A stretch of DNA of 64,000 bases from an uncultured virus (IMG/VR IMGVR_UViG_3300022879_000001) (taxonomy: Duplodnaviria > Heunggongvirae > Uroviricota > Caudoviricetes), in the IMG/VR virus record IMGVR_UViG_3300022879_000001. One strand, given 5' to 3'. Shown here in pieces: positions 3,451 to 19,306 of this stretch. Position 1 is the stretch's first letter, and every line of letters begins with the position of its first letter. The notes beneath the pieces are model-generated. The model had not been told where the DNA came from. It ran no database searches and worked only from the letters and a program-made list of their open reading frames with translations. The position numbers were made by a program, and so were the translations under genes.

Positions 3451-3493
3451 GAACATTGGGAGTCGATTTAAAAGTCGGCTCTCGAATATTAAA

Positions 3494-3542
3494 TAATAAA
3501 ATACATAAAATACTTTACATTCAACAAAATAATGGATATACT
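3494..3542 (+). promoter_or_regulatory. SigA promoter with conserved upstream element (copy 1)
   Basis: TAATAAAATACATAAAATAC-TTTACA-17bp-TATACT. Confidence 0.7.
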
Positions 3543-3578
3543 ATAACTAACAAGAAAATCACAAAGGGGTTGCGAATA

Positions 3579-4649
3579 ATGGTTATGGCTAATTATAGAA
3601 CATCTTATATTAATGAGTATATTGGTGAAAGTATTGAAGAATTTCTACGATTTAAAGGTAAAAAATCAACTAATACAGAAAAAACGTACAGATCAGCATT
3701 AAACATGGTGTTCAAAGATATTTTATCTAAAAGAGAATATAAGTATATTACAGTAAGCGATATTGAAGATGGATTGAATTCAGATGTACTATTTGAATAC
3801 TTTGATGATTTATTTTATTGTGAAAAAGAAGATGGTAAAAGAAAGTATTCAAACCAAACAATAAATAATAGACAGTCAGCAATTAAATCACTTATTAAAC
3901 ATTTAAGAAATAGAAAGGTAATTAAATATGATTTAAATGATTTAACAGTCATAGAATCACTACCTGACACGGGTGAAGAAATAGAAATGATACCTTTTGA
4001 TTTGGCTATGGAGTATGCCGAATACTTTGCTAAGGAAGATCAAGGGTTGGAAAAATCGTTAATAATTAATTTAGCTGCTGAAACAGGTATGAGAGCAAGC
4101 GAACTATTATCTGTAGAATGGTCAAATTTCATCGAAGCTGATGATGGTGTTATTTTGAAATCTTATGGTTATAAAAAAGGTAAAGGAAATCAAGAATGGA
4201 TTGATAAAATCAGTAAGGACTTGTATAATGAGCTTTTACAATTGAAATCAATTGGAAATAATATTAAATTATTCACTCTTACTTATAAGCAATTAGTAGG
4301 TCTAATGGAAAGAGGAAATAATCTTTTAAATAAAACAGGTATCAACTACTCCTTCCACTCATTTAAAAAGCTTGCGGTAACTATGTGTTATTTAAATAAT
4401 AACAACTGTATTGACACAGCTATGAAAAAAGCAAGACATAGTAATGTAAATACCACTATGAGATATTTGAGATTAACTAATTTAAATGTTACAGGTATTA
4501 TATCTGCAAAAATGAATACTTCTGAAGAGATGTATAAAACAGTTTCTCATGAGTTATTGTTAGAATGTTTAGAAGAAATGCGTCCAGAAATGTTATTATT
4601 ACTAAATAATAAGATAAAAAATAAAGTGTCTAAGAGTGATTACCTATGA
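3579..4649 (+). CDS. Tyrosine recombinase, YopP/SroD-like
   Basis: ETGMRASELL, FHSFKK, ARHSN..TTMRY motifs; RBS AAAGGGG before ATG 3579; first gene of a YopPQR-like triad. Confidence 0.8.
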   Translation: MVMANYRTSYINEYIGESIEEFLRFKGKKSTNTEKTYRSALNMVFKDILSKREYKYITVSDIEDGLNSDVLFEYFDDLFYCEKEDGKRKYSNQTINNRQSAIKSLIKHLRNRKVIKYDLNDLTVIESLPDTGEEIEMIPFDLAMEYAEYFAKEDQGLEKSLIINLAAETGMRASELLSVEWSNFIEADDGVILKSYGYKKGKGNQEWIDKISKDLYNELLQLKSIGNNIKLFTLTYKQLVGLMERGNNLLNKTGINYSFHSFKKLAVTMCYLNNNNCIDTAMKKARHSNVNTTMRYLRLTNLNVTGIISAKMNTSEEMYKTVSHELLLECLEEMRPEMLLLLNNKIKNKVSKSDYL

Positions 4650-4702: not shown

Positions 4703-6037
4703 ATGCAAATTAATAAAACTAGAGAACAGTTAGAAATAGAAATTAAAAGCTTAATACAGTTATTTGCTTCAACAATTAGTAAAAAAGAGGTAGAATTAAT
4801 TGTTGAGCATTTACATGGTAAACATGGAATTAAAAAAACTAGTATTTATTCACTATTCAATAATTCAAACAATGTTGGAAGGCTTACTCAAGAAGAGATT
4901 GCTTTATTTGGTGAACAACTAGTCATTAAATTAGGTATTGATCAAAACGAATGGATGAACGTCTGGTTTACAGAACGTGAGAGAAAAGAGTTTGGAAGTT
5001 ATCAATTTGTAGATGTTCAATCAATGGATGAGATTGATTTCCCAATGGTAAAACAAAATGTAGTCGATCTGGGTGATGGATATTATCTAACGTCTTTTAC
5101 AAAACAGGAACTAGGTAGACTTTATAAATATGGCAAATTAGATTATAACCCTAATGTACAAAGAGGTATGCGAAAGGTCGTAAGATATGGATTAGTATCA
5201 GAAGAGCCTATAGTATTAAAAAAGAAAGTAAATGAAATTAGAAACTTAACTTTAAAAAATAAACTAAGACCATCTACTGTTATTTTTAACGCTAAACAAT
5301 ACAGTTCTGAAGAAGAGTCAGAATTAATTTATGATAATGATAAGAATACATTAACCATAACTGAGGGTACAGTGTTAGACATAGTTGATGGTATGCATAG
5401 AACTTTAGGTACTTATAGTGCTTATATTAGAGATAAAAATATACAAGGGTCTTTTCCTGTAATTATATCCAACAAATCAGATGAGGAAATTAAGAGATAC
5501 CAATTAGATTTAAATAAACACACTCCTCTTACTAAAGGTAGAGCCAATGAATTAAAAGAAGAAAACTATGCAAGTGATGTAATAAGTATTTTAAAATCTA
5601 AAGGTGAACTTAAAGATAGAATTACAACAAGTACGGATATTAAACATTCTTTAAAGGGTAATGAATTTATTCCATATAACATTTTATATAATGCAATAAG
5701 TAATGTTTATAAAATCAGTAGTCGATTAGAAGCTAGAAAAATTGCTGAGGAAATAAATGAATATTTAGTTTATTTATTTGGAGTTTTTGGTAAGCATGAG
5801 AATGATGAATACAAGGTTCTATTTGATGCTGATATCTTTGAAGGTCATTTAGCATTAATGAAGAAGATGAATGAAAATGAAATGAAGTATGATGAATTAG
5901 AAAAAATTATTGATATTAATGAATTCCATATAGAAAATGAACGTTGGAATGAATACAAATTATTAAATAAGAATATAGGTAAACTGTCTAAAAAAGACAG
6001 AAATAATATAGTTAAGTACTTTGAGAGTCTGATCTAG
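4703..6037 (+). CDS. DGQHR/DndB-like (ParB-fold) protein, YopQ/SroE-like
   Basis: YNPNVQRG and IVDGMHR motifs; lies between two recombinase-fold genes. Confidence 0.75.
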   Translation: MQINKTREQLEIEIKSLIQLFASTISKKEVELIVEHLHGKHGIKKTSIYSLFNNSNNVGRLTQEEIALFGEQLVIKLGIDQNEWMNVWFTERERKEFGSYQFVDVQSMDEIDFPMVKQNVVDLGDGYYLTSFTKQELGRLYKYGKLDYNPNVQRGMRKVVRYGLVSEEPIVLKKKVNEIRNLTLKNKLRPSTVIFNAKQYSSEEESELIYDNDKNTLTITEGTVLDIVDGMHRTLGTYSAYIRDKNIQGSFPVIISNKSDEEIKRYQLDLNKHTPLTKGRANELKEENYASDVISILKSKGELKDRITTSTDIKHSLKGNEFIPYNILYNAISNVYKISSRLEARKIAEEINEYLVYLFGVFGKHENDEYKVLFDADIFEGHLALMKKMNENEMKYDELEKIIDINEFHIENERWNEYKLLNKNIGKLSKKDRNNIVKYFESLI

Positions 6038-6049
6038 GGGGAATAACGG

Positions 6050-7024
6050 ATGTATAATGTTGAATACAAGGAAGCCTTTTTAGAAGCGTCTGAACATGCT
6101 GAAGAAACTAAGAATCAATATAGGTTGTATTTTAAAAAAACCGAACCTTTCGAAAATCAAAAAGGTAAAGATTTATTTGATATGGATTTTGATATGCTGG
6201 AAGAGCTGTTTTATTGGGTACAAAGAAAAACAGAACGTTCTGCTGTAAACTTCTTTAATACAATTAAGAATTATATTACATGGGCAAAAGACAATGGTTA
6301 TGGAGAAAGTCCACTTAATCCAATTATCGATACAATTAATACGGAATTTGTTTCAAAATATTTATATAAAGAAGGAATAAAATATTATACTAGAAAAGAT
6401 TTATTTAAGTATTTTGAGAACATGAATAATGTAAGAGACAAAGCTTTGGTCTTAGCTTTATTTGAAGGTATCAGTGGAAATAAGTTTTCAGAAATTATTA
6501 ATTTAAGAAGAGAAGATCTCTCAGAAAAAGAAGACAGATACTATGCTTCTCTACTAAGTGATGAAGTTGATTTAACTAATAGACAATTAGAAATATCAAA
6601 AGAGCTATATGATATGTTGATCGAAACTTACAATACACAAGAATACAAAAGTGTAAACGGAAGAGTAAACCGAGTTGTTGATGGAGAATATATCTTCAGA
6701 AAGAGTCGTCTCGGTAAATCTGATGTAAGAATAACAATACCTATGCTACAGAGTATTATTATTAATGTAGTAAAAGTTGCATTTGACGATGTGCAGATAA
6801 CAACGACATCTATTAACAACTCTGGGGTAATGTATTATGCAAATGAATTTATGAGCAGCGATAGAGTTCTCACAAAAGAAATAGCAACTAAAGTGACAGA
6901 AAAATTTGATTTATATAGTTTGGAAGTTAAAGGTAAGAAATATCCTTCGTTTATGAGATTTAAAGAAATTATAGATATAGATTATATGGAAGAAGAGTAT
7001 GGGAATTTTAAATTAGACTTCTAG
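6050..7024 (+). CDS. Integrase-fold master repressor, YopR (MrpR/SroF)-like
   Basis: MYNVEYKEAFL...FENQKGKDLFD N-terminus; LFEGISG.KFSEI lacks the catalytic Arg; synteny. Confidence 0.75.
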   Translation: MYNVEYKEAFLEASEHAEETKNQYRLYFKKTEPFENQKGKDLFDMDFDMLEELFYWVQRKTERSAVNFFNTIKNYITWAKDNGYGESPLNPIIDTINTEFVSKYLYKEGIKYYTRKDLFKYFENMNNVRDKALVLALFEGISGNKFSEIINLRREDLSEKEDRYYASLLSDEVDLTNRQLEISKELYDMLIETYNTQEYKSVNGRVNRVVDGEYIFRKSRLGKSDVRITIPMLQSIIINVVKVAFDDVQITTTSINNSGVMYYANEFMSSDRVLTKEIATKVTEKFDLYSLEVKGKKYPSFMRFKEIIDIDYMEEEYGNFKLDF

Positions 7025-8894: not shown

Positions 8895-9295
8895 TAAAAT
8901 ACATAATGTATAGATATTATTTAAAATTAGTAATACATAAACGATGTTTAAGGATATTTAAAAACATAATTATCAAAAATATAATACATAAATGGAGAAA
9001 ATACATAATGACCCAATACATAGTTTCGTTAGTTTTAAATGGTGACGAATATAACGTAAATGTAAAGAAAGAAAACAAGGAAGATGCTTTACAGTATGCG
9101 AAGGACAAGCTTAAGTTTGACAAGATAATTGGAGTAGCTGAAAAGTTAGACTTTAAACGTAAACGTTTTGGCTATTTAGGCAATCCAGATCGTACACCAT
9201 ATGGCAGTAGAAGTAAGGATATGAAAGCAGCTAAGAATACTAAGCGTAGTCAAATCAAGTATGTAAAATAACATATACATAAAAGGAGAAATTAA

Positions 9296-10045
9296 ATGTC
9301 GAATGAAATTATTTTTGTACAAAGTGAATTCATGAGAAATGAAAACGTTTATCGTGATGAAGTTTTAGAAAAGGTTAAAATTATTCCAAGTCTAAAGGTA
9401 ACTGATGAAGTAACAGTGGAAATGGCTTCTAATTATTATGAAGTACCAATTGAGACAATAAAAAGCGTAATTAAGCGTCATAGAGATGAGTTTAACGACT
9501 ATCAAGAGGTAAGAGTTTTAAAAGGAAAATCATTGAAAGAATTTTGTGAGGTGCATCCTGAACCTGACAAAATAATATCCAGTAAAACTAGATCATTACA
9601 ATTAATTAATCGCAGAGGGCTGTTACGACTAGGCATGGTGTTAACGGAATCAGAAGTAGCAATTTCAATTCGTAACTATTTATTAAATGTAGAGGAAATA
9701 TCAGATAAGAAGCAAAGAGAATGGGCAGTAGAACGTGAAATTTCAAAGCGTAATCGTAGAATGCTTACTGATGCCATTAAAGAGTTTTGTGCAGGATTGA
9801 TGAAAGGACATGAGTACTCTACATATACAAACTTAGTTTACAGTATTGTATTTGATTGTAAAGCTAGTGATTTGCGTGAATTATACGACTTAGAAAAGAA
9901 GGAACAAATCAGAGATTCTTTGACTACAGAAGATTTAGAGAAGGTTGTAGAGGTTGAAAAAGTTATTACTTCATTATTGAAGATAGGAAAAGATTATGAA
10001 TACATAAAAAGCGAGTTGCAGAAGTATAAACATAATTTTAATTAA
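9296..10045 (+). CDS. Putative phage DNA-binding/antirepressor-like protein
   Basis: N-terminal VTVEMASNYYEV...IKRHRDEF wHTH-like segment; RRGLLRLGMVLTESEVA. Confidence 0.5.
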   Translation: MSNEIIFVQSEFMRNENVYRDEVLEKVKIIPSLKVTDEVTVEMASNYYEVPIETIKSVIKRHRDEFNDYQEVRVLKGKSLKEFCEVHPEPDKIISSKTRSLQLINRRGLLRLGMVLTESEVAISIRNYLLNVEEISDKKQREWAVEREISKRNRRMLTDAIKEFCAGLMKGHEYSTYTNLVYSIVFDCKASDLRELYDLEKKEQIRDSLTTEDLEKVVEVEKVITSLLKIGKDYEYIKSELQKYKHNFN

Positions 10046-10102
10046 TACCACTCTATTATTAAAAAATACATAGTTTAATTATAAAACAGAAAGGAAGAAG
10101 TT

Positions 10103-10540
10103 ATGAACCAAGTTCATGAATTAAAAATTTTAAATGAGTATTTTGAGGGAGTTAATGAAGGGCTAAAAACCTTTGAAATTCGTAAAAATGACCGAAACTT
10201 TCAAGTTGGAGATTTTCTGTTATTAAAAGAATATACTGGAGAGCAATTCACAGGACGAGAAATATTACAACAAGTCACTTACATGACAAATTACGAGCAA
10301 AAAGAAGGTTATGTTGTCATGTCAATTCAAAGTGTACCAATTAGTTTTGGTTTTTATTTGAACATGAGTGAGAAAGAGAAGACTGTTTTTAAGAAGGTCA
10401 TTACTCACATGCATTTGTACGGAACAGGAGTCAGGGATGTAACCAATACTTTTTGGGAAATTATTGACGAACTTATAGAACGACGTGGGTTAACAGAATC
10501 AGACCAACAATGGTATATGGAATTTTGGAATGAAGATTAA
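10103..10540 (+). CDS. ASCH/PUA-like DUF3850 protein
   Basis: HELKI...G.KTFEIRKNDRNFQVGD.L.L.EY motif. Confidence 0.85.
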   Translation: MNQVHELKILNEYFEGVNEGLKTFEIRKNDRNFQVGDFLLLKEYTGEQFTGREILQQVTYMTNYEQKEGYVVMSIQSVPISFGFYLNMSEKEKTVFKKVITHMHLYGTGVRDVTNTFWEIIDELIERRGLTESDQQWYMEFWNED

Positions 10541-10577
10541 TCGAAAAGAAAATGTACAGGAAGGATGATATATGTAG

Positions 10578-10943
10578 ATGGATATTTTAACAGATTATAG
10601 AGATTTAATAGGTAAGAAAATTGTATTTTCACATATGGCTCAGTTTGCAGAGTAAATCACATTAGCAACAGAAGACGGTTGTGTATTAATGGCAACATTT
10701 GATTATGATGAAATGGCAGAAGAATCAAGAGTAAGGGTTATGTATCCTCATTCCGTAATTCGAGTACTAAACGAACAGGAATGGATACGTAATGAATTAG
10801 GCAGATTAGGTATTTTTGATATTGAAAAATATAAAGAAGAACAGCGTATCAAACAAGAAAAAGAAAAAGAGGAATATCGTAAAAAGCAAGAAGTGAAAGA
10901 ACGTGCCGAATACGAACGTTTAAAGGCTAAATTCGAAAAGTAA
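10578..10943 (+). pseudogene. Hypothetical protein interrupted by in-frame TAA
   Basis: ATG 10578 is in frame with ORF 10689-10943; TAA at 10653-10655. Confidence 0.6.
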
Positions 10944-11006
10944 TCACTGAAAATGATATTAAATAATAGTGGAATTTTATCTAAAAAAAAATAAGGAGGT
11001 TTTAGT

Positions 11007-11453
11007 GTGAGCTATGAAATGCAAATTAAATTGGATAAGGAAACAATGGAGAACATTCAGAATGAAATTATAACTAATAATCCTTTTGATTTTGAAGGAT
11101 GCTTCTGTGGCACTGCTAATTTTTCAATTGGTACTATCAATGATACAGAATTATTTCTATATGTTGATACCAGTTGTCGAAAGAGTATGGGGTGCGACAA
11201 TGGTTATTACAGCGTTTCTGGATTCACTTTTTCTAAGAAAGTAAACGCAAAAGAAACCAAGAAGTATTTAGATTGGCAAGAAAGCGATGACGAGTATAGT
11301 GAGAAACTAGAAAATTTTTATTTGTTAGATGATGAAACAGTTCTTAAATGCTGTTTTAGACATTATAAATTAAATGGTAAGCAGGAAAAGAAAATCAAAA
11401 AATGGATTAATGACTTATACATAAAAATGTATGGTTATGATCCATTAAAATAA
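11007..11453 (+). CDS. Hypothetical protein
   Basis: AGGAGG RBS, 148 aa. Confidence 0.7.
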   Translation: MSYEMQIKLDKETMENIQNEIITNNPFDFEGCFCGTANFSIGTINDTELFLYVDTSCRKSMGCDNGYYSVSGFTFSKKVNAKETKKYLDWQESDDEYSEKLENFYLLDDETVLKCCFRHYKLNGKQEKKIKKWINDLYIKMYGYDPLK

Positions 11454-11459
11454 ATTAAT

Positions 11460-11510
11460 TAATAAAATACATAAAAAATACTTGAAATTAGTTGGTTGGT
11501 AGATTAAGAT
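11460..11510 (+). promoter_or_regulatory. SigA promoter with conserved upstream element (copy 2)
   Basis: TAATAAAATACATAAAAAATAC-TTGAAA-17bp-TAAGAT. Confidence 0.65.
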
Positions 11511-11626
11511 ATATTTATCAAAGAAAACAAATAAATGAAAGTTATAACATTCTCATTGTAAATAAATAGTTGTTATGTAGCAAATGTCGGTGATTAGTTA
11601 ATAAAATACATAATAATGAAACGGAG

Positions 11627-11827
11627 ATGTTTATAATGTTTGAAGAGATAAAGCAGATAAGTAACGATTCCATATTAGATGACAAACTAAGACAAGCCAT
11701 GATCAAGCAGATGGAAATAGGTTATCAGCAAATGTATGAAATCAATCTTCAAATAGCAAACGAATGGTACGATGTTGAAAATGAAGCTGAAGCGATAAAC
11801 GATCAGATTGTGAAAGGGGAATGGTGA
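11627..11827 (+). CDS. MazE/NdoAI antitoxin C-terminal mimic (probable anti-MazF)
   Basis: MEIGYQQMYEINLQIANEWYDVENEA aligns with the B. subtilis NdoAI segment MRRGYMEMAKINLNISSEAHFAECEA (recalled); no RHH domain. Confidence 0.7.
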   Translation: MFIMFEEIKQISNDSILDDKLRQAMIKQMEIGYQQMYEINLQIANEWYDVENEAEAINDQIVKGEW

Positions 11828-11829
11828 TC

Positions 11830-12278
11830 TTGATTAAAATTATACAAGGTGACATTTTACAAAGTGATAAAGATGTCATCGGGCATCACGTTTAGGTGTT
11901 ATGGGTGCAGGAGTTGCTAAACAAATCAAGGACAAGTACTATGAGACATTTTTGGAATATAAAAAGATGTGTGATAGTCATAAAGAAAGTAGAGAGGAGT
12001 TAATGGGTCATGTACATATAGCTCATAACTCTGACGGAAAGATAGTTGCTAACATTTTTAGTCAACTGGATGTAGGTAGAAATGAGCGTAAAACAGACTA
12101 TAAAAAACTTAAAATAGGTCTGAAAAAGGTATGTAAGTACGCAAAAGAAAATAATCTTTCAGTTGCTTTACCATACAAAATTGGTTGTGGTTTAGCAGGT
12201 GGTAATTGGAACATTGTTTATAAAATCATTGATTCCGTATTTGAGGATTATGAAGTAACGATGTACGAGTTTAAATAA
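11830..12278 (+). pseudogene. Macrodomain (TARG1/DarG-like ADP-ribose hydrolase), frameshifted
   Basis: TTG 11830 MIKIIQGDIL..DVIGH, then a frame change to LGVMGAGVAKQIK...PYKIGCGLAGGNW; conserved NC residues missing. Confidence 0.75.
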
Positions 12279-12324
12279 TAAATAGGATGTTTTTATATAA
12301 ATAATTAAAGTGAGGTGAACTGAG

Positions 12325-12582
12325 ATGTCGAAACATTGGTTAGAAGAAGTTAATTACAACAAAAATAAATCACAGCAATTCGTCATAACATATAAAGATA
12401 ATGGTACACTTAAATCCTTATCTAAGTTTGGTTCAATTACATACAAATCACCAGTTATAAATGTATTATTCATAGATACTGAATACAGCAAAGAACGATT
12501 GTTGAAAATAGACGGTGTAATGAGTGCAACTGTACCAAAGAAAGGTAGATTGCTAAATAATAAAGAGAAAAGTACATATTAG
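12325..12582 (+). CDS. Hypothetical protein
   Basis: GAGGTG RBS, 85 aa. Confidence 0.65.
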   Translation: MSKHWLEEVNYNKNKSQQFVITYKDNGTLKSLSKFGSITYKSPVINVLFIDTEYSKERLLKIDGVMSATVPKKGRLLNNKEKSTY

Positions 12583-12593
12583 AGGATAATTGA

Positions 12594-13220
12594 ATGGAAA
12601 AATTAACGAATGAGGAATTAGTGGAGTTATATCAAAGCGATAATAACGAATTTGCATTTGAAGAGTTGTATAAGAAGAATAAAGGACTTATATACAATGT
12701 ATGCTTAAGATTTAAGAACACAGCAATTATTACCAAAGAAGATATAAAAAGTGCTTGCGATTTAGGATTTGTAAGAGCAGCTAAGTCTTATAGTAATGAT
12801 AACAATTGTAAATTTTCTTCTTATTGTCATGTTGTAATGGTCAATGAAGTAAATACAAACATTAATACTGCTCGTAGACAAAAGAGAGATAGTTCAAATC
12901 ATTTATTTTATTGCTTAGATGAAAAGGTAAATGAAGAGGAAGGTAGTAAGCTAGTTGACATACTGAATACTTCAGATAATGATGTTTTACATAAGAGCGA
13001 CTATACATACTTACATAATGCGATTGAATACGCAAAAACATCGATAAATGAAAAATACCATCAATACTTATTACCACTAATGTTTAGAGAAACAACTACA
13101 AACGAAGTAGCTCTGATCATTGGAGTAAGTCCAAGGACAGTGCATTATACAACTACTATGTTTAGAGAGCATGTACGAGAATACATATACCATTACTCAG
13201 AAGGCGAAATAGTTTCATAA
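12594..13220 (+). CDS. Phage-encoded sigma-70 family sigma factor
   Basis: LTNEELV..YQ...AFEELYKKN.GLI, EDIKS...LGFVRAAKSY...KFSSY region 2; C-terminal HTH EVALIIGVSPRTV. Confidence 0.85.
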   Translation: MEKLTNEELVELYQSDNNEFAFEELYKKNKGLIYNVCLRFKNTAIITKEDIKSACDLGFVRAAKSYSNDNNCKFSSYCHVVMVNEVNTNINTARRQKRDSSNHLFYCLDEKVNEEEGSKLVDILNTSDNDVLHKSDYTYLHNAIEYAKTSINEKYHQYLLPLMFRETTTNEVALIIGVSPRTVHYTTTMFREHVREYIYHYSEGEIVS

Positions 13221-13485
13221 TAACGGAGATGATTAATTTGAAAGTAAATGTTGTTTATAAAGTACATTTAGATAAGAGAAATAGAATTGGTGAATTTTAT
13301 AAAGAGATAGCAAAGGTGTGCAGCAAGGATGAAAATGAATATTTGCAAGTAGCTTTACATAGAAAGAAAAATACAGAATCACATATTAGCTACATTTTAG
13401 GTCATTTAAAAGAGAGTGAATTAAGTAAGTACATAATCTTATAAAAGAATGATTTTATTAAATGAAAAATAAAAAAAGGATGAAA

Positions 13486-13647
13486 TCATCCTTTAGGTTT
13501 AGTATCAGTATTCTTATTGACTTGTTCTAAAGCTTCTATATACTTTTTAGCAGTTTCAAGCTCATCATGGGAGATACTGTTTATAAGGTTTTTCAAAGCA
13601 ATATGCTCATCTAAATTAACTACTTTGGGATTTTGATTTTCAGACAT
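13486..13647 (-). CDS. 53-aa protein antisense to the surrounding array
   Basis: AAGGA RBS; MSENQNPKVVNLDEHIALKNL...; ends in hairpin AAAGGATGA-AA-TCATCCTTT. Confidence 0.6.
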   Translation of the reverse strand: MSENQNPKVVNLDEHIALKNLINSISHDELETAKKYIEALEQVNKNTDTKPKG

Positions 13648-13736
13648 ATACGATCAATCCTTTACAACTTATATAGTGATTATATTAGCACTTTGTTTTA
13701 GTTTGTTTCAAATAAAATGATTATGGAGGAACAGGG

Positions 13737-15024
13737 ATGGAAGAGTTGCGTTATAAGCCAAGTGAAGTTCAAAAATTAATCTTTAAAGATAAAGAAAATG
13801 TTTCAAACTATATTAATGTATCAATTGAAGAAATGGATTATATGATGGAATTAGCAATCAAATATCAGCAACTACATGAGACATGGTTCAAAGGAATCGA
13901 AAATGAAGAACCGACTATTTTATTCTTACGTAAATGCAAAGAAGTAATTGAAGAAGTAAAGCCTGAGTATAGAAAAACAATGACCTGATATTTAATAAAT
14001 AAGTATTATTGAAGGGATGTTGAGGATGAGTAAATTAGAAATAATCAAGAAGCAATGGACTGAATACGAGACAGAATTTGGCGAGAGTGATTTTATGGAT
14101 ATTGATAAACATACTAGCATGGCATTTAATGTACCAGTATTATTAAACAAATTAGATAAAATTCATAAAGATTTACTTCAGATGAAGAAAGACAGTAATT
14201 GTAAATATGTTGATATTGACTATATGTTAAATGCTATTGAAAATGAAAAATAGTAAGGAGAGATTTTAATGAACGATAAAGAAATAGAAATGACATTACC
14301 AAATGGTTACACTGTTGCAATTTTCGAATATGAAGGAAATATTGTATTAAATTTGATTAATGATAGAGGCTATTCAGTTTCAGATACAAAATTACATAAA
14401 TCAGAAATAGCGAAAATACATGAAATAACTGCTATTAAATAATAATTCACTTTTATGAAAGAGGTGTTAAGTTTGTGAAAAAGGAAGCATTTATTATAGT
14501 AGATGTTAATGAAAAGTATTACTGTGAAGAATTTATAGATGGTAATGGAGATCTCCATTGTAAGACAGATGATATTGATTTAGCTTTACATTTTGAAAGC
14601 CGTGAAGATGTTGAAGAATATTTAAAATATATTGCTTATCATGATTTCTTAAAGGAGCATAATCCTGAAAAAATTATTAAGGTTTTAATCGAATATCAAA
14701 TATCAGAAGAGTACCAGATTTAATAATAGTACGATATCATTTAAAGGATGTGAGATAAATATGGATAACCTAAGCTTAACTAACAAACCCTCAAGACCAG
14801 TCAAACCTAAGAAAGTGCCGAAAGGAACTAAAATTATTGCACTAGATGAAAATAAAATACTTATTAGCGAAGGAGATTGGCATCCAGAAGCAAGTACAAT
14901 AATAGATTTTAGTGCAAGATATGTTGATAGAGCAGGAATTGATCGATGTGGAAATGAACTTTTCGGTAATCGTGGATTTAAATATAAGGATTATGGTGTT
15001 AAATGGAATTTCTACAATGAATGA
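13737..15024 (+). other. Array of small hypothetical ORFs (13737-13988, 14017-14253, 14269-14442, 14475-14723, 14761-15024)
   Basis: Co-oriented short ORFs with RBS. Confidence 0.7.
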
Positions 15025-15090
15025 AGTTAATAAAATACACGTATTATTTAATCAATGATAACAAAAATACATAAAAAGGAATGATGTATA

Positions 15091-16215
15091 GTGCAATTCA
15101 CATTAACTGAAGAACAATACAGTGAAATTAAAAAAGATATCTTAGGAAGTCAATTCGATTTTAAATTTGAAAAGAACAAATTGAAAGCATATTTAGGAGA
15201 AGGCTTATACAACTCATTAAAGAAATCTAAAGCTATTATTGCAGGTGGAATGATCTCAAGTTTATTCACCAATAAGGATATCAATGATGTAGACGTATAT
15301 TTCCGTGATTATAATTCACTTTATTTATTTGCAGAACGAACTCTATCAGGAGATCATGTAGTCTCTCACACAAAGAAAGCTACACAATTTATTAAAAAAT
15401 ACTTAGATCAACAAATTTTAGTGCAAATTATTCATTATCGTACATATGAGAAAGTTGAAGATAAAGGATATAAAATCTCAAAAGCAGAATATTTCCGTGT
15501 TCTAATGACTTGTATGACATTGGATATTAAATCTTATGATGAGCTAAAAGAACAATTAGGTGGAATGTATGGTGAATCTTATGATCGTTTATTTGATGAT
15601 GTGAAAGATGAAGAGTTTGATTTGCAAGTAGCTATAGACCGTATTGCAAATTTCTCCAAATCAGAAGACTATTTTAAAGAATATCGTCCGATTGACTATA
15701 ACATCGATGACATCTTAGACGATTTAGATAAAGGTGAACGATTCGTTGTTAAATTAAAGGATGGTAATGAATACAGGGTTATTAATGGTGAAGTAATTGG
15801 AGAATATGCATCAGAAAAAGAAGCAACTGAACTTGATGTTCAAGAGTTTTATAAAGATAAGAAATTCTATAAGTTTGTTCAAAAATCAGGAGAATCATTA
15901 CAAAGTTTCTTCCGTTCCACATTTAAATATGTAGTTGGAGAAGAAGTAACTGCTGAAAAAGAATACCCTAATAATTCATACGGTGCTCACGGCAAATTAT
16001 TCTTCAATCATAAATACGAATTAAAGAGTTCAACATATTTTAGCAACACTGATAAGGTATTAATTGAAGTTGAAATTGACGGAACAAATGTAATTGAAGA
16101 TAGTTCGAATGAAATCACTGCTAGTAAATGCAAGGTTGTTCGAGAAGTACCAGAAGCAGAATGGAAAGAGTGGATCGGATTTAAGGATGAAGAAGAAAAA
16201 TTTATCTTATTCTAA
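15091..16215 (+). CDS. Nucleotidyltransferase-fold protein
   Basis: IIAGGMISSLF...INDVDVYF (GG...DxD) motif. Confidence 0.65.
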   Translation: MQFTLTEEQYSEIKKDILGSQFDFKFEKNKLKAYLGEGLYNSLKKSKAIIAGGMISSLFTNKDINDVDVYFRDYNSLYLFAERTLSGDHVVSHTKKATQFIKKYLDQQILVQIIHYRTYEKVEDKGYKISKAEYFRVLMTCMTLDIKSYDELKEQLGGMYGESYDRLFDDVKDEEFDLQVAIDRIANFSKSEDYFKEYRPIDYNIDDILDDLDKGERFVVKLKDGNEYRVINGEVIGEYASEKEATELDVQEFYKDKKFYKFVQKSGESLQSFFRSTFKYVVGEEVTAEKEYPNNSYGAHGKLFFNHKYELKSSTYFSNTDKVLIEVEIDGTNVIEDSSNEITASKCKVVREVPEAEWKEWIGFKDEEEKFILF

Positions 16216-16480
16216 TTAGATAATATTTCAGTTTTATTAAAAGATGGAGAAAATGGAGGAATTATGATGAAAGTTAAAAAATTAATTAAACACAGTGCGG
16301 ACAACGAAACGTTTGAGATTTATAAAAACGAAACCCTTATGACTAAAGGATATGGTTTTGAAGAAAATGTTCAAAAATTCAAGAATAGAGAAATTTACTT
16401 CTTTCATTCATCAGATAGACATTCACTAATAGTTAACATTAAGTAAAAATCACATTTTATAAAAATTGGAGGAAAGTATT

Positions 16481-17062
16481 ATGACCACATGGTTTATCGC
16501 AGATACACATTTTCGTCACAAAAATGTATTAGAGTTTGAAAATCGTCCATTTGAATCGTTAGAGGAAATGGAAGAAAAGATGATTAAAGCGTGGAATGAT
16601 GCTGTTGCTAAAACAGATACAGTTTATATTGTAGGAGATTTCTGTTTCGCTAATAACAAAGAATGGATTGAAATTTTAGATCAATTGAAAGGTAACATTA
16701 TCTTAGTTAAAGGTAATCATGATAAGTCTAAAATCATTAAACGAGTACAAAATGAAGGTTATTTAAATGAGATTTATGAGGTAGGAAAGTTAATTCAGCA
16801 TGAGAAATTATTCTTTTATGTAACGCATTTCCCTTTTGAAATCGGGGAGCGTCCACAATACTTTAATATTTCTGGACATATTCATTCTAAAGAAAGTAAT
16901 TTAATTAATCAGTTGAATGTAGGTGTAGATTCTAAATTAATGCATGATTATTATCTCATTTCAGATGTACCATTTGGAACTCCAGTTCCATTTGAATATT
17001 TAATTGGATATGCTGAAACAGTAAATTTAGAGATGCGAGAAAAATATGTTCGAGGTCAATAA
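16481..17062 (+). CDS. Calcineurin-like metallophosphoesterase
   Basis: DTH, GD, GNHD, THFP and GHIH motifs. Confidence 0.9.
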   Translation: MTTWFIADTHFRHKNVLEFENRPFESLEEMEEKMIKAWNDAVAKTDTVYIVGDFCFANNKEWIEILDQLKGNIILVKGNHDKSKIIKRVQNEGYLNEIYEVGKLIQHEKLFFYVTHFPFEIGERPQYFNISGHIHSKESNLINQLNVGVDSKLMHDYYLISDVPFGTPVPFEYLIGYAETVNLEMREKYVRGQ

Positions 17063-17081
17063 ATTATAAAAAGGTGGTAAT

Positions 17082-17996
17082 TTGACAATGCATACTGTAA
17101 GTAAAGAAATAGGATTAGCCTTGGATGCTGCTATTAAAGAATTTACATTACATGGAGTTTTAGATGTTGTACCAAAGAATTTCGATAAATGGAGTAATGA
17201 CTGTGAACCATTAAATGATATCAGCGTATACCAATTAGCATCATTTATCATTGAAGGATATAGTTATCCAAAATCAACAGAAGAAACTTTAGAAATTTTT
17301 GTTAATTGGTTAAATAATTATAGCACTGACATTCCTTTACAAACAAAAAATAGTAGTTATCGTAAAGGACGTAGAGAAGTATTAAATAACATTGAAATAA
17401 AATTAAATGAATTAGGTTTATTAGGAGGAAAATAAATGTATAAATTTTATAACGATTTAAAAGATTTTATTCTTAAACAAGATCAAGAAGTTAAAAATAT
17501 TCTTATCCAGTACTATGAAACGTTATTTCAATTGGAAAGTTTTCAAGAAATAAAAGAGTTGCTAACACAATATGAAAATGGCAGTTATATCATTGATTAT
17601 AATGAACCTGATGATCATGATTACTCTTCTAATGGATGGTTTGAAATTTACAATATGTCTAATTCAACTTCATATAATATTGAATTAGACATCGGTGATA
17701 TGCGAGGAAGTTACTGTCAATGCACACCTGATGACGCTGGTTACAATTCTGATAAAAATTGCTGCGGAGTACAGTGTGATGCTCATTTACCAGGAGTATC
17801 GATTATTAAAACATCAAAGGTTATTAGTTATGAGTTCCAAGGACATGAATGTGATCTGTGGAAATTAGAAAAGAAGTGGTTGACTGACTTTGAGAAAGAA
17901 TCATTACATAAGAAAAAGGCTGAAAAGGTAATTAGTTTAGAAGCACAAATCGAGCAATTACAAAAAGAATTAAACGTAGTAAAATCACAGTTATAA
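17082..17996 (+). other. Two hypothetical ORFs (17082-17435, 17436-17996)
   Basis: ORF track, RBS present. Confidence 0.65.
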
Positions 17997-18004
17997 AAAT
18001 TAAA

Positions 18005-18053
18005 TAATAAAATACATAAAATTACTTGCAATATAAGAATAAGGTGCTATAAT
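18005..18053 (+). promoter_or_regulatory. SigA promoter with conserved upstream element (copy 3)
   Basis: TAATAAAATACATAAAATTAC-TTGCAA-16bp-TATAAT with TG extension. Confidence 0.7.
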
Positions 18054-18685
18054 AAATATATAAGTTAAGAAAGAGGGTGATGACAATGGTCAGTAGATTG
18101 ACTTTTACAGAAGAACAGGAGATAGAAATCTTGAATGAGCTAGATTTTATGAATGATCAAAAAGAATTTACTCGTGATAATGCTGTTTGGTGTAATAAGA
18201 CAATCAAGAAGCTGCTACTAGAATTACATTTTTTAAGAAATGATATTATTAATAAATAAAATACATAAAGGTGGTAATTACTTGAATGAAACACCGTTGC
18301 AAGAAAATGAAATTCAATTAACTTCTGAGTATAGGATTACAGGGGATAAGATGAATATTATCCTCACGGAGCGTTACCAGAAACAGGACGGTAAAGGTCG
18401 AGGTAAGGGGTTGTTAGATGAATATACTTATGGTAGACCTAAGTATTATGGTACATTAAATGCATTAGTTGATTCATTGATTAAAAATGAAGTAATTGAT
18501 TCACTTGGTAAGATAAAAGAATTACAAGAAATAATCCCTCGTATTGAAACAATTAGAAACGAGATTAAAGAATACATAAATGAACAAGTAACAATTGTAC
18601 AAGAAAGTACAAAAAGTAAGAATAATAGAAAAGTAAAAGGTATAGAAATTGCAGAAGATGATGAAGTAAATGATGGTGATGCCGA

Positions 18686-19306
18686 TTGACAATTCGCTAT
18701 GTTGGAATTGACCCATCATCAATGACAGGATTCTTTATACAAGATGAAAAAGGTAAGACTATAGTTGAAACTGATTTATTTTATACATACAGAAAAGATC
18801 CAGAAAGAATGATTTACATTGCTGAAGAAATAATTAAGAAATTAAACTTAGAAACAGACATCATTTGCATTGAAAACTTCAGTTACAATTCAGTTGGACA
18901 AGGGATCGACTATCAATTTGGGGTCGGCTGGATAATCAGAGAACATCTGCATAATGCAGGATTTAAATATTATGATGTCAGTCCGAAAAGTTTAAAGAAG
19001 TTTGCAACTGGTAACGGTAATTCGTCAAAAAAACTTATGGTTGCACCTATAGAAAAACGTTGGGGATTCAAACATCCTAGTGATAATGTTACAGATGCTT
19101 TCGTATTATCAGAAATTGCGAAAGCTATTGATAAGGGTAATGATTATGAAGGAATAAAAGATCATGAGAATCAAGTTGTGAAAATTGTTAAAAGTGGTAT
19201 TTTGAATAAAGAGCAATGGAAAGAAATTAAACCTCCTCCTTGGATGAATCCAAGAAGTAAATACTACTTCAAGCGTGAAGGATTAGACGAAGAAGTACAG
19301 GTATAA
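18686..19306 (+). CDS. RuvC-like Holliday junction resolvase
   Basis: YVGIDPS..TG, ICIE, LKKFATGNGN, DNVTDA. Confidence 0.85.
   Translation: MTIRYVGIDPSSMTGFFIQDEKGKTIVETDLFYTYRKDPERMIYIAEEIIKKLNLETDIICIENFSYNSVGQGIDYQFGVGWIIREHLHNAGFKYYDVSPKSLKKFATGNGNSSKKLMVAPIEKRWGFKHPSDNVTDAFVLSEIAKAIDKGNDYEGIKDHENQVVKIVKSGILNKEQWKEIKPPPWMNPRSKYYFKREGLDEEVQV

Follow-up and report, generated by a model that had tools for sequence, protein, structure and literature searches.

A short phage protein related to the MazF-binding C-terminus of host MazE: a probable MazF neutraliser in an SPbeta-like phage

The stretch of DNA analysed here, termed the window, comprises 64,000 nucleotides (nt) of an uncultured virus of the Caudoviricetes (IMG/VR record IMGVR_UViG_3300022879_000001) and encodes on its + strand a protein of 63 amino acids (aa), termed the mimic, that is homologous to the C-terminus of the antitoxin MazE. 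As judged from sequence homology, a modelled complex and analogy with the phage proteins AimX and YosL, the mimic is very probably a stand-alone copy of the MazF-binding tail of host MazE that would bind and neutralise the endoribonuclease MazF. No MazF-like gene was found in the window, the MazF of the presumed host genus is nearly invariant, and gene and promoter are conserved among related prophages; binding, neutralisation, the timing of expression and the consequences for the life cycle of the phage are what we infer from these features. A sequence-only reading of the window had placed an early anti-MazF factor at this position, a proposal that homology, architecture, orphan status and published precedent uphold and in which binding itself is modelled. 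The anti-MazF mechanism is already published for AimX and YosL, of which the mimic is a further member from another host genus. A literature search, supplements aside, turned up no publication describing a protein of this kind from phages of Lysinibacillus.

The mimic gene and its product

The open reading frame (ORF) 11627-11827 on the + strand, with the peptide GYQQMYEINLQIANEWYDVENEA quoted for it in the sequence-only reading, is present in the window. The frame proposed in that reading stands and its start at 11627 most likely does not: the true start is almost certainly the second in-frame ATG, at 11636, because the N-terminus xEEIKQ that begins there is common to the aligned relatives (17 of 17, two of which had longer called N-termini) and because a GGAG ribosome-binding site lies 9 nt before it. 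The two elements are as follows.

11636..11827, + strand: mimic gene, encoding a solo MazE C-terminal domain protein of 63 aa (homology, alignment and models)
11623..11626, + strand: Shine-Dalgarno (SD) sequence GGAG, 9 nt before the ATG at 11636 and abutting the ATG at 11627

The AlphaFold2 model of the mimic, computed with the family alignment, displays one long helix extending from residue 12 to residue 59, with no strand and a mean predicted local distance difference test (pLDDT) score of 86.9. The mimic had been described as lacking the ribbon-helix-helix (RHH) DNA-binding domain, in agreement with this single-helix model and with the absence of a Pfam RHH match; the local Pfam scan of the mimic returned a sub-threshold DegS match only. 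The N-terminal segment xEEIKQ..D (residues 1-22, 11636-11700) is invariant among 18 aligned members of the family. It lies outside the confident part of the modelled interface described below and has no counterpart in AimX.

Homology to the C-terminus of MazE

All profile searches used profile A1, an alignment of 18 family members. The profile matched EndoAI, the MazE of Bacillus subtilis (PDB code 4ME7, chain E, residues 58-92; expectation value (E) of 1.8e-7), and the HMMER alignment of the mimic sequence alone with this chain displays the segment that the sequence-only reading had quoted as the toxin-binding C-terminal helix of NdoAI. Further matches include AimX of phage phi3T (PDB code 8ANV, chain C; E 8.9e-7), the places of aimX and yosL in the phi3T genome (E 5.9e-8 and 1.7e-7, respectively), a Bacillus phage gene annotated 'antitoxin' (E 1.9e-7) and, for 40 of the 41 genomes of Lysinibacillus sampled, the gene that immediately precedes mazF (E from about 1e-6 to 6e-8). 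A direct BLASTP comparison of the mimic with Lysinibacillus MazE aligned the C-terminal part with 22 of 63 positions identical (~35%) and an E of 2e-9, as calculated for a single comparison. The C-terminal part is also matched by phrog_21769, a profile of 115 positions that probably represents the YosL family (E 6.4e-8), and the sole NCBIfam match was the staphylococcal MazE model NF041459 (E 2.3e-5, 24.4 bits). At the level of sequence, these searches confirm that the likeness of the mimic to the MazF-binding C-terminus of MazE exceeds chance.

Among the proteins of a large collection are 41 relatives, each of 60-68 aa except for one call of 94 aa, and the Pfam family PF27083 (MazE_antitoxin_C) is precomputed on every one of them, including a 63-aa protein identical to the mimic (P0001). 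The named relatives come from Lysinibacillus and one is called 'antitoxin' by NCBI. The 18 members aligned share 18 invariant columns. In an alignment of seven proteins (the mimic, its copy in a sister prophage, a 61-aa solo ORF, AimX, YosL, the Bacillus phage 'antitoxin' and Lysinibacillus MazE), G29, Y30, M33, I40, E48 and E50 are invariant. The residues of AimX described as contacting its partner, M14, Y18, E20 and M21 (PMC10769878), correspond to M, Y, Q and M in the mimic, three of the four being identical.

In a representative library of 1.84 billion proteins, profile A1 matched 89 clusters at an E of 0.001 or better, of which 48 are represented by proteins of at most 76 aa, 29 by proteins of 77-101 aa, 11 by proteins of 102-170 aa and one by a longer protein. 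Since 48 of the 89 representatives are that short, the sequences suggest that short MazE-tail proteins are common and form a standing class. Three of the 41 Lysinibacillus genomes (G002, G022 and G030) carry full-length members of the phage family, and in the window, translated in six frames, the profile finds no copy besides the mimic. Eleven of the 41 genomes contain a further short solo MazE-tail ORF (11 in all, as open frames of 58-76 aa) located away from mazF, such as that at 1447-1632 of L036. At the DNA level, megablast of positions 10000-14000 against phage records gave no match. No match was seen in G001 (14.7 kb), the closest virus record, and PADLOC gave none either.

MazF as the target and the modelled complex

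A search of the 41 Lysinibacillus genomes detected MazF in 40, with 97-99% identity, the lone miss being an assembly of 1.1 Mb; this MazF is closely orthologous to the EndoA of B. subtilis (4me7_A, E 2.3e-58). In the window itself no MazF-like gene was found, the best tblastn match with Lysinibacillus MazF having an E of 4.5, and the mimic is flanked by a 148-aa ORF and a macrodomain gene, in keeping with the earlier statement that no toxin gene adjoins it. Of the three genomes that carry the full-length phage family, G002 and G030 have the chromosomal mazF as their only PemK-family match. G022, the remaining carrier, has in addition a divergent PemK-family gene of 110 aa (L051 2862-3399), located ~82 kb from the copy of the mimic in that genome and preceded by its own 65-aa ORF without the MazE motif; this gene neighbours a long ORF, a candidate tail gene, and may belong to a phage-borne toxin-antitoxin pair.

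The complex of two Lysinibacillus MazF chains with the mimic, modelled with alignment A1, scored 0.71, whereas the highest of three controls reached 0.01. The mark that it passes is one passed by 116 of 157 solved complexes and by 2 of 215 mismatched pairs. Contact agreement between runs was at least 58% and the pLDDT of the partner chain at least 58. The confident part of the modelled interface comprises residues 18-19, 22-23, 25-34 and 36-40 of the mimic, M26, Y30 and M33 among them, and touches both copies of MazF. Because the MazE-MazF and AimX complexes have already been solved, such a model speaks for likeness to known complexes rather than for binding. The structure prediction with MazF that the sequence-only reading had put forward as a check thus returns a high score, with binding at the level of a model.

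Taken together with the promoter described below, a plausible course of events would begin with host RNA polymerase transcribing the mimic from the promoter at 11482-11510 once the phage genome escapes repression. The mimic helix, through M26, G29, Y30 and M33, would fill the groove at the MazF dimer interface in the manner of MazE, AimX and YosL, and the host endoribonuclease would be kept inactive. Phage messages, which are unusually rich in UACAUA, would then survive, allowing the lytic programme to run.

Promoter, leader and the repeated 15-nt box

The region upstream of the mimic contains the following elements.

11460..11474, + strand: exact copy of the 15-nt box TAATAAAATACATAA, upstream of the -35 hexamer and invariant in four related prophages
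11482..11510, + strand: sigma-A-like promoter TTGAAA-17 nt-TAAGAT (consensus scan, 9 of 12 matches)
11517..11635, + strand: inferred 5' leader of ~118 nt, with an inferred start point, more conserved than the ORF in the four prophages
11599..11613, + strand: second exact 15-nt box, within the leader and 10 nt before the SD, with TACATA at 11607-11612

The sequence-only reading had named a conserved promoter copy, copy 2, ahead of the mimic, which corresponds to the box at 11460 together with the site at 11482-11510, and the mimic is indeed the first gene behind it. The 15-mer TAATAAAATACATAA has six exact copies in the window and 28 copies with at most two mismatches, compared with 3.18 expected; 23 of the 28 lie on the + strand (sites include 3494, 8892, 11460, 11599, 18005 and 36428). 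The box precedes TTGMAA by 4-8 nt three times, compared with none expected: the copies at 11460, 18005 and 36428 lie 6-7 nt before TTGMAA, and the copy at 3494 precedes TTTACA. These sites agree with the promoter copies named in the sequence-only reading. Promoter-like matches are not enriched by themselves in the stretch (8 found, 11.9 expected), and it is near-invariance in the four prophages that supports the promoter at 11482-11510. Between box and start codon the sequence hardly changes among these prophages, less than within the ORF, and the downstream gene varies.

A structured leader or riboswitch was considered and rejected, the RNA fold being no better than that of shuffled sequences (z-score of 0.34). 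The conserved leader also holds an ORF of eight codons (ATG...TAA; 11536-11562, + strand) without an evident SD, which is probably meaningless. No terminator-like site was found between the promoter and position 12700. The host-type promoter, the first position behind it and the presence of a phage sigma factor in the same string of genes would fit an early operon.

Early promoters of SPbeta carry a 15-bp repeated element, SPBRE, to which the master repressor MrpR binds (PMC10516654), and by analogy the box beside the promoters may be the operator of the MrpR-like repressor of the window. The link between box and SPBRE is one of analogy, since a parallel search in phi3T failed: the 20-mer upstream of PaimR had no further match in 50 kb of phi3T at up to three mismatches.

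UACAUA sites and candidate wiring to MazF

The B. subtilis EndoA/MazF cuts the hexamer U/ACAUA in vivo (PMC11780869). The sequence-only reading had pointed to leaders rich in UACAU, and the counts agree with it, the boxes carrying the stricter hexamer UACAUA. In the gene block of the + strand (1-48300, with expectations derived from base composition), TACATA occurs 99 times in the sense orientation, compared with 31 expected, and 28 times in antisense, compared with 38.7 expected; window-wide, ATACATA has 74 sense and 7 antisense copies. In the intergenic DNA of this block, TACAT leads all 30 five-mers of equal composition (41 occurrences, the next having 16), and it lies within 50 nt before the start of 25 of 81 genes, where five-mers of the same composition have a median of 5 and the next best 11. 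By rough gene calls, more than half of the sense ATACATA sites (37 of 66) are intergenic, and 22 of these 37 end at most 40 nt from a start codon, in most cases 13-25 nt ahead of it. The leader site usually belongs to a conserved AAUACAUAA box, whose end lies 13-25 nt ahead of the start codon and just 5' of the SD. The strand-specific box TAATAAAATACATAA, whose core AATACATAA equals the EndoA/MazF hexamer UACAUA, is found upstream of the -35 hexamer of four sigma-A-like promoters, as well as just 5' of many SDs.

The same enrichment is seen in a related genome, where TACATA reaches 2.25-3.2 per kb in the sister prophage of strain G002 compared with 0.5-1.25 per kb in its chromosome. For 25 of 28 orthologue pairs, window and sister prophage agree on whether a box precedes the start, a figure inflated by relatedness. 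In phi3T, ATACATA occurs 35 times in sense, compared with 10.1 expected, with 27 of the 35 inside ORFs; placement of the box just 5' of the ribosome site therefore seems particular to the mimic-carrying phage group. Candidate roles for the boxes are those of a MazF site, an operator, an element of promoters read by the phage sigma factor or the site of an RNA-binding protein. Several lie 2-5 nt from an SD, which was judged too close for a -10 element, and the box in the mimic leader may be a DNA operator or promoter element, also or instead.

A bistable circuit had been proposed from the TACAT in the mimic's own leader, which is found at 11607-11611. The mimic ORF contains no TACAT and the leader TACATA lies upstream of the SD, so that a cut by MazF need not silence the mimic; a negative effect of MazF on the mimic mRNA, and hence a bistable loop, is an assumption. 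If phage expression were wired to free MazF, the mimic, made first from a host-type promoter, would act as a master switch that keeps the leaders whole, and without it MazF would clip most phage messages at a fixed place, leading to lysogeny or arrest. The joint reading that expression is wired in this way and that, in sister prophages, mimic and macrodomain gene form a cassette against two unrelated toxin-antitoxin defences is put forward tentatively and with considerable doubt. The leader UACAUA boxes provide a concrete set of candidate MazF cleavage sites, bearing on a question left by both 2024 papers, namely which phage transcripts MazF cuts in the block of lysis or in lysogeny.

The phage and the surroundings of the mimic gene

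The window has ~30% G+C and no tRNA genes. Its genes include those for a DnaB-like helicase, a primase, a DNA polymerase, a ribonucleotide reductase, a large serine recombinase and an FtsK-like protein, and by sequence fit a large SPbeta-like temperate phage. The named relatives of the mimic point to a Lysinibacillus-type host. The following features accompany the mimic.

3456-4649, 4703-6037 and 6050-7024, + strand: YopP-YopQ-YopR-like lysogeny module (tblastn)
6050..7024, + strand: MrpR/YopR-like master repressor (Pfam MrpR_N_CB, E 3.8e-17, above the cut-off)
11824..12278, + strand: DarG/TARG1-type macrodomain gene, its start overlapping the mimic stop (GTGA); Pfam Macro, E 1.7e-7, in the 3' part
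12325..12582, + strand: conserved 85-aa ORF, syntenic in L001 and L033, without a family match
12594..13220, + strand: phage sigma-factor-like gene of 208 aa (Sigma70_r2, E 5e-6; phrog_351, E 4.6e-16), syntenic in L001 and L033

The lysogeny module was located with phi3T YopP, YopQ and YopR (tblastn E 1e-10, 6e-40 and 1e-20, respectively); unlike in phi3T, no AimR-sized ORF precedes it. Upstream of the mimic lie an unknown 148-aa ORF, an 84-aa ORF and an ASCH gene. The 148-aa ORF was rejected as a toxin partner, as the promoter intervenes and the ORF is not beside the mimic in L001 or L033. The order of promoter, mimic, macrodomain gene where present, 85-aa ORF and sigma-like factor is kept in both of these prophages.

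In the window, the loss of 7 nt next to 11888/11889 breaks the macrodomain gene and leads to a stop at 11893-11895; in the sister prophage L001 the gene is intact (6186-6650; 154 aa). The intact protein is most similar in the PDB to 5m3i_A (E 6.9e-10), with further matches to 5m31_A and TARG1; 5M3I and 5M31 are macrodomains of DarG antitoxins (PMC5179494). The gene is absent from two of the four prophages aligned, and in L033 the 85-aa ORF follows the mimic. DarT was found in one of the 41 Lysinibacillus genomes searched. Phages are described as carrying orphan antitoxin-like enzymes against DarTG (PMC11825919), and mimic and macrodomain could pair as two orphan antitoxin-like counter-defence genes, which is offered as a lead rather than a finding.

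Positions 9000-18999 are present nearly whole (68-99% of sampled words) in 24 listed runs labelled as soil metagenomes, 18 of which are recorded as metatranscriptomes. Contigs of all four runs examined (three from RNA libraries and one from DNA) carry the deleted form of the macrodomain gene, with no insertion listed, and break at one repeat (11447-11478), showing no transcript ends. As RNA libraries may contain DNA, these contigs are uninformative on transcription.

Weighing of the evidence and of alternative explanations

Several observations weigh against the mimic as a MazF neutraliser. Searched alone, the mimic matches its relatives weakly, with an E of 0.049 for AimX (8anv_C) and 0.1 for EndoAI (4me7_E) in the PDB and 3e-3 at best among phage records. 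The local Pfam scan gave no MazE family match, PF27083 not being among its models, and the match to NF041459 stays below the equivalog cut-off of 108 bits. Where AimX and MazE carry a contact glutamate the mimic has Q, as does one other of the 18 aligned members, the remaining 16 having E. The invariant EEIKQ segment has no explanation in the MazF-binding model. In the modelled complex, MazF was folded without an alignment and was taken from a related genome rather than from the host of the window, and passing the mark shows likeness to solved complexes and may reflect memory of structures such as 4ME7. Finally, the window represents 64 kb of a phage of ~139 kb (an identical mimic protein is encoded on a contig of 138,851 bases), so that a partner gene could lie beyond it.

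It is improbable that the mimic is mainly an AimX-like switch whose chief partner is a phage lysogeny protein in the role of phi3T_93/YopM, with MazF second. The protein phi3T_93/YopM promotes lysogeny and binds MazE, and AimX binds both phi3T_93 and MazF by one helix (PMC10769878). The mimic is close to AimX in size (63 vs 51 aa) and is devoid of YosL's N-terminal domain, which is described as clashing with phi3T_93 (PMC10769878); moreover, the window contains the YopP-YopQ-YopR-like lysogeny module, and the invariant N-terminal EEIKQ plays no part in the MazF model. However, tblastn of the window with phi3T_93 gave at best an E of 1.7 over 8 residues, and with phi3T AimR a best E of 6.5, with no AimR-like frame in the window and no AimR-sized ORF upstream, and the mimic lies behind its own sigma-A-like promoter rather than behind an aimR-aimP pair. 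The two null searches are weak arguments, because small proteins diverge fast and the search covered 64 kb.

Two further origins of the gene would leave no place for counter-defence. The carrier G022, with its second PemK-family gene ~82 kb from its copy of the mimic, raises the question of a split pair, in which the mimic would be the antitoxin of a MazF-like toxin encoded elsewhere in the phage, yet that toxin is preceded by a small ORF of its own, the carriers G002 and G030 have the chromosomal mazF alone, tblastn with host MazF detects no PemK-like frame in the window, and in 40 of 41 genomes profile A1 recognises the host MazE; a split pair is accordingly very improbable. That the mimic is a captured, decaying and functionless fragment of host mazE is scarcely credible. 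Its homology is confined to the C-terminal third of MazE and the adjoining macrodomain gene is broken in the window, as decay would have it, but the 41 relatives keep to 60-68 aa (apart from the one 94-aa call), the aligned members preserve their 18 invariant columns, and SD, promoter and leader are conserved in the four prophages, while the short forms stand as a class of their own in 48 of 89 representative clusters. Nor is a recent capture indicated, as the mimic is only ~35% identical to host MazE. Neutralisation of MazF by a stand-alone MazE tail thus remains the preferred reading of the mimic.

Comparison with known systems

The host MazE/EndoAI (YdcD) and the mimic have in common the C-terminal MazF-binding segment; MazE has an N-terminal domain and adjoins mazF on its upstream side, in contrast with the mimic, which has neither. 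The staphylococcal MazE, described by the 54-position model NF041459, resembles the mimic in being a short antitoxin with little beyond the MazF-binding segment. Staphylococcal MazE is paired with a chromosomal mazF. A different mode of action is seen in AdfN, which acts against DarTG1 by enzymatically reversing the product of the toxin (PMC11825919), whereas the mimic would bind its toxin stoichiometrically.

The closest parallels are the MazE-like proteins of SPbeta-type phages. AimX, the arbitrium output peptide of phi3T (51 aa), and YosL carry the C-terminal MazF-binding region of MazE and bind and inactivate MazF, and an aimX/yosL double mutant is rescued by deletion of mazF (PMC10769878). 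A companion preprint agrees and describes the ORFs of phi3T and SPbeta as enriched in UACAU (10.1101/2023.04.27.537455), and YosL is required for SPbeta induction (PMC10516654). Like the mimic, YosL is a phage-encoded MazE-like protein from an SPbeta-type phage with a YopR/MrpR repressor. In contrast, YosL is a protein of 117 aa whose alignment with the mimic leaves an N-terminal domain of ~70 residues without counterpart, predicted to be of the Arc-type RHH fold (PMC10516654), and yosL lies directly upstream of nrdI-nrdE, whereas the mimic is ~26 kb upstream of the ribonucleotide reductase genes.

AimX is similar to the mimic in being a small, helix-only, phage-encoded protein with the MazE motif M..GY.EM..IN..I..E....E.EAE, the two sharing 45% identity over 33 residues (tblastn). 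The mimic differs from AimX in its conserved 22-residue N-terminal extension (EEIKQ...), its longer C-terminus and the Q at the position of E20; it is located behind its own sigma-A-like promoter, not behind aimR-aimP, and its presumed host genus is Lysinibacillus. The mimic would thus extend the strategy of AimX and YosL, in which the host MazEF system is disarmed, and perhaps exploited, by means of a copied antitoxin helix, beyond the phages of Bacillus subtilis to SPbeta-like phages of another genus, in a minimal MazE-tail form that would work without an arbitrium system.

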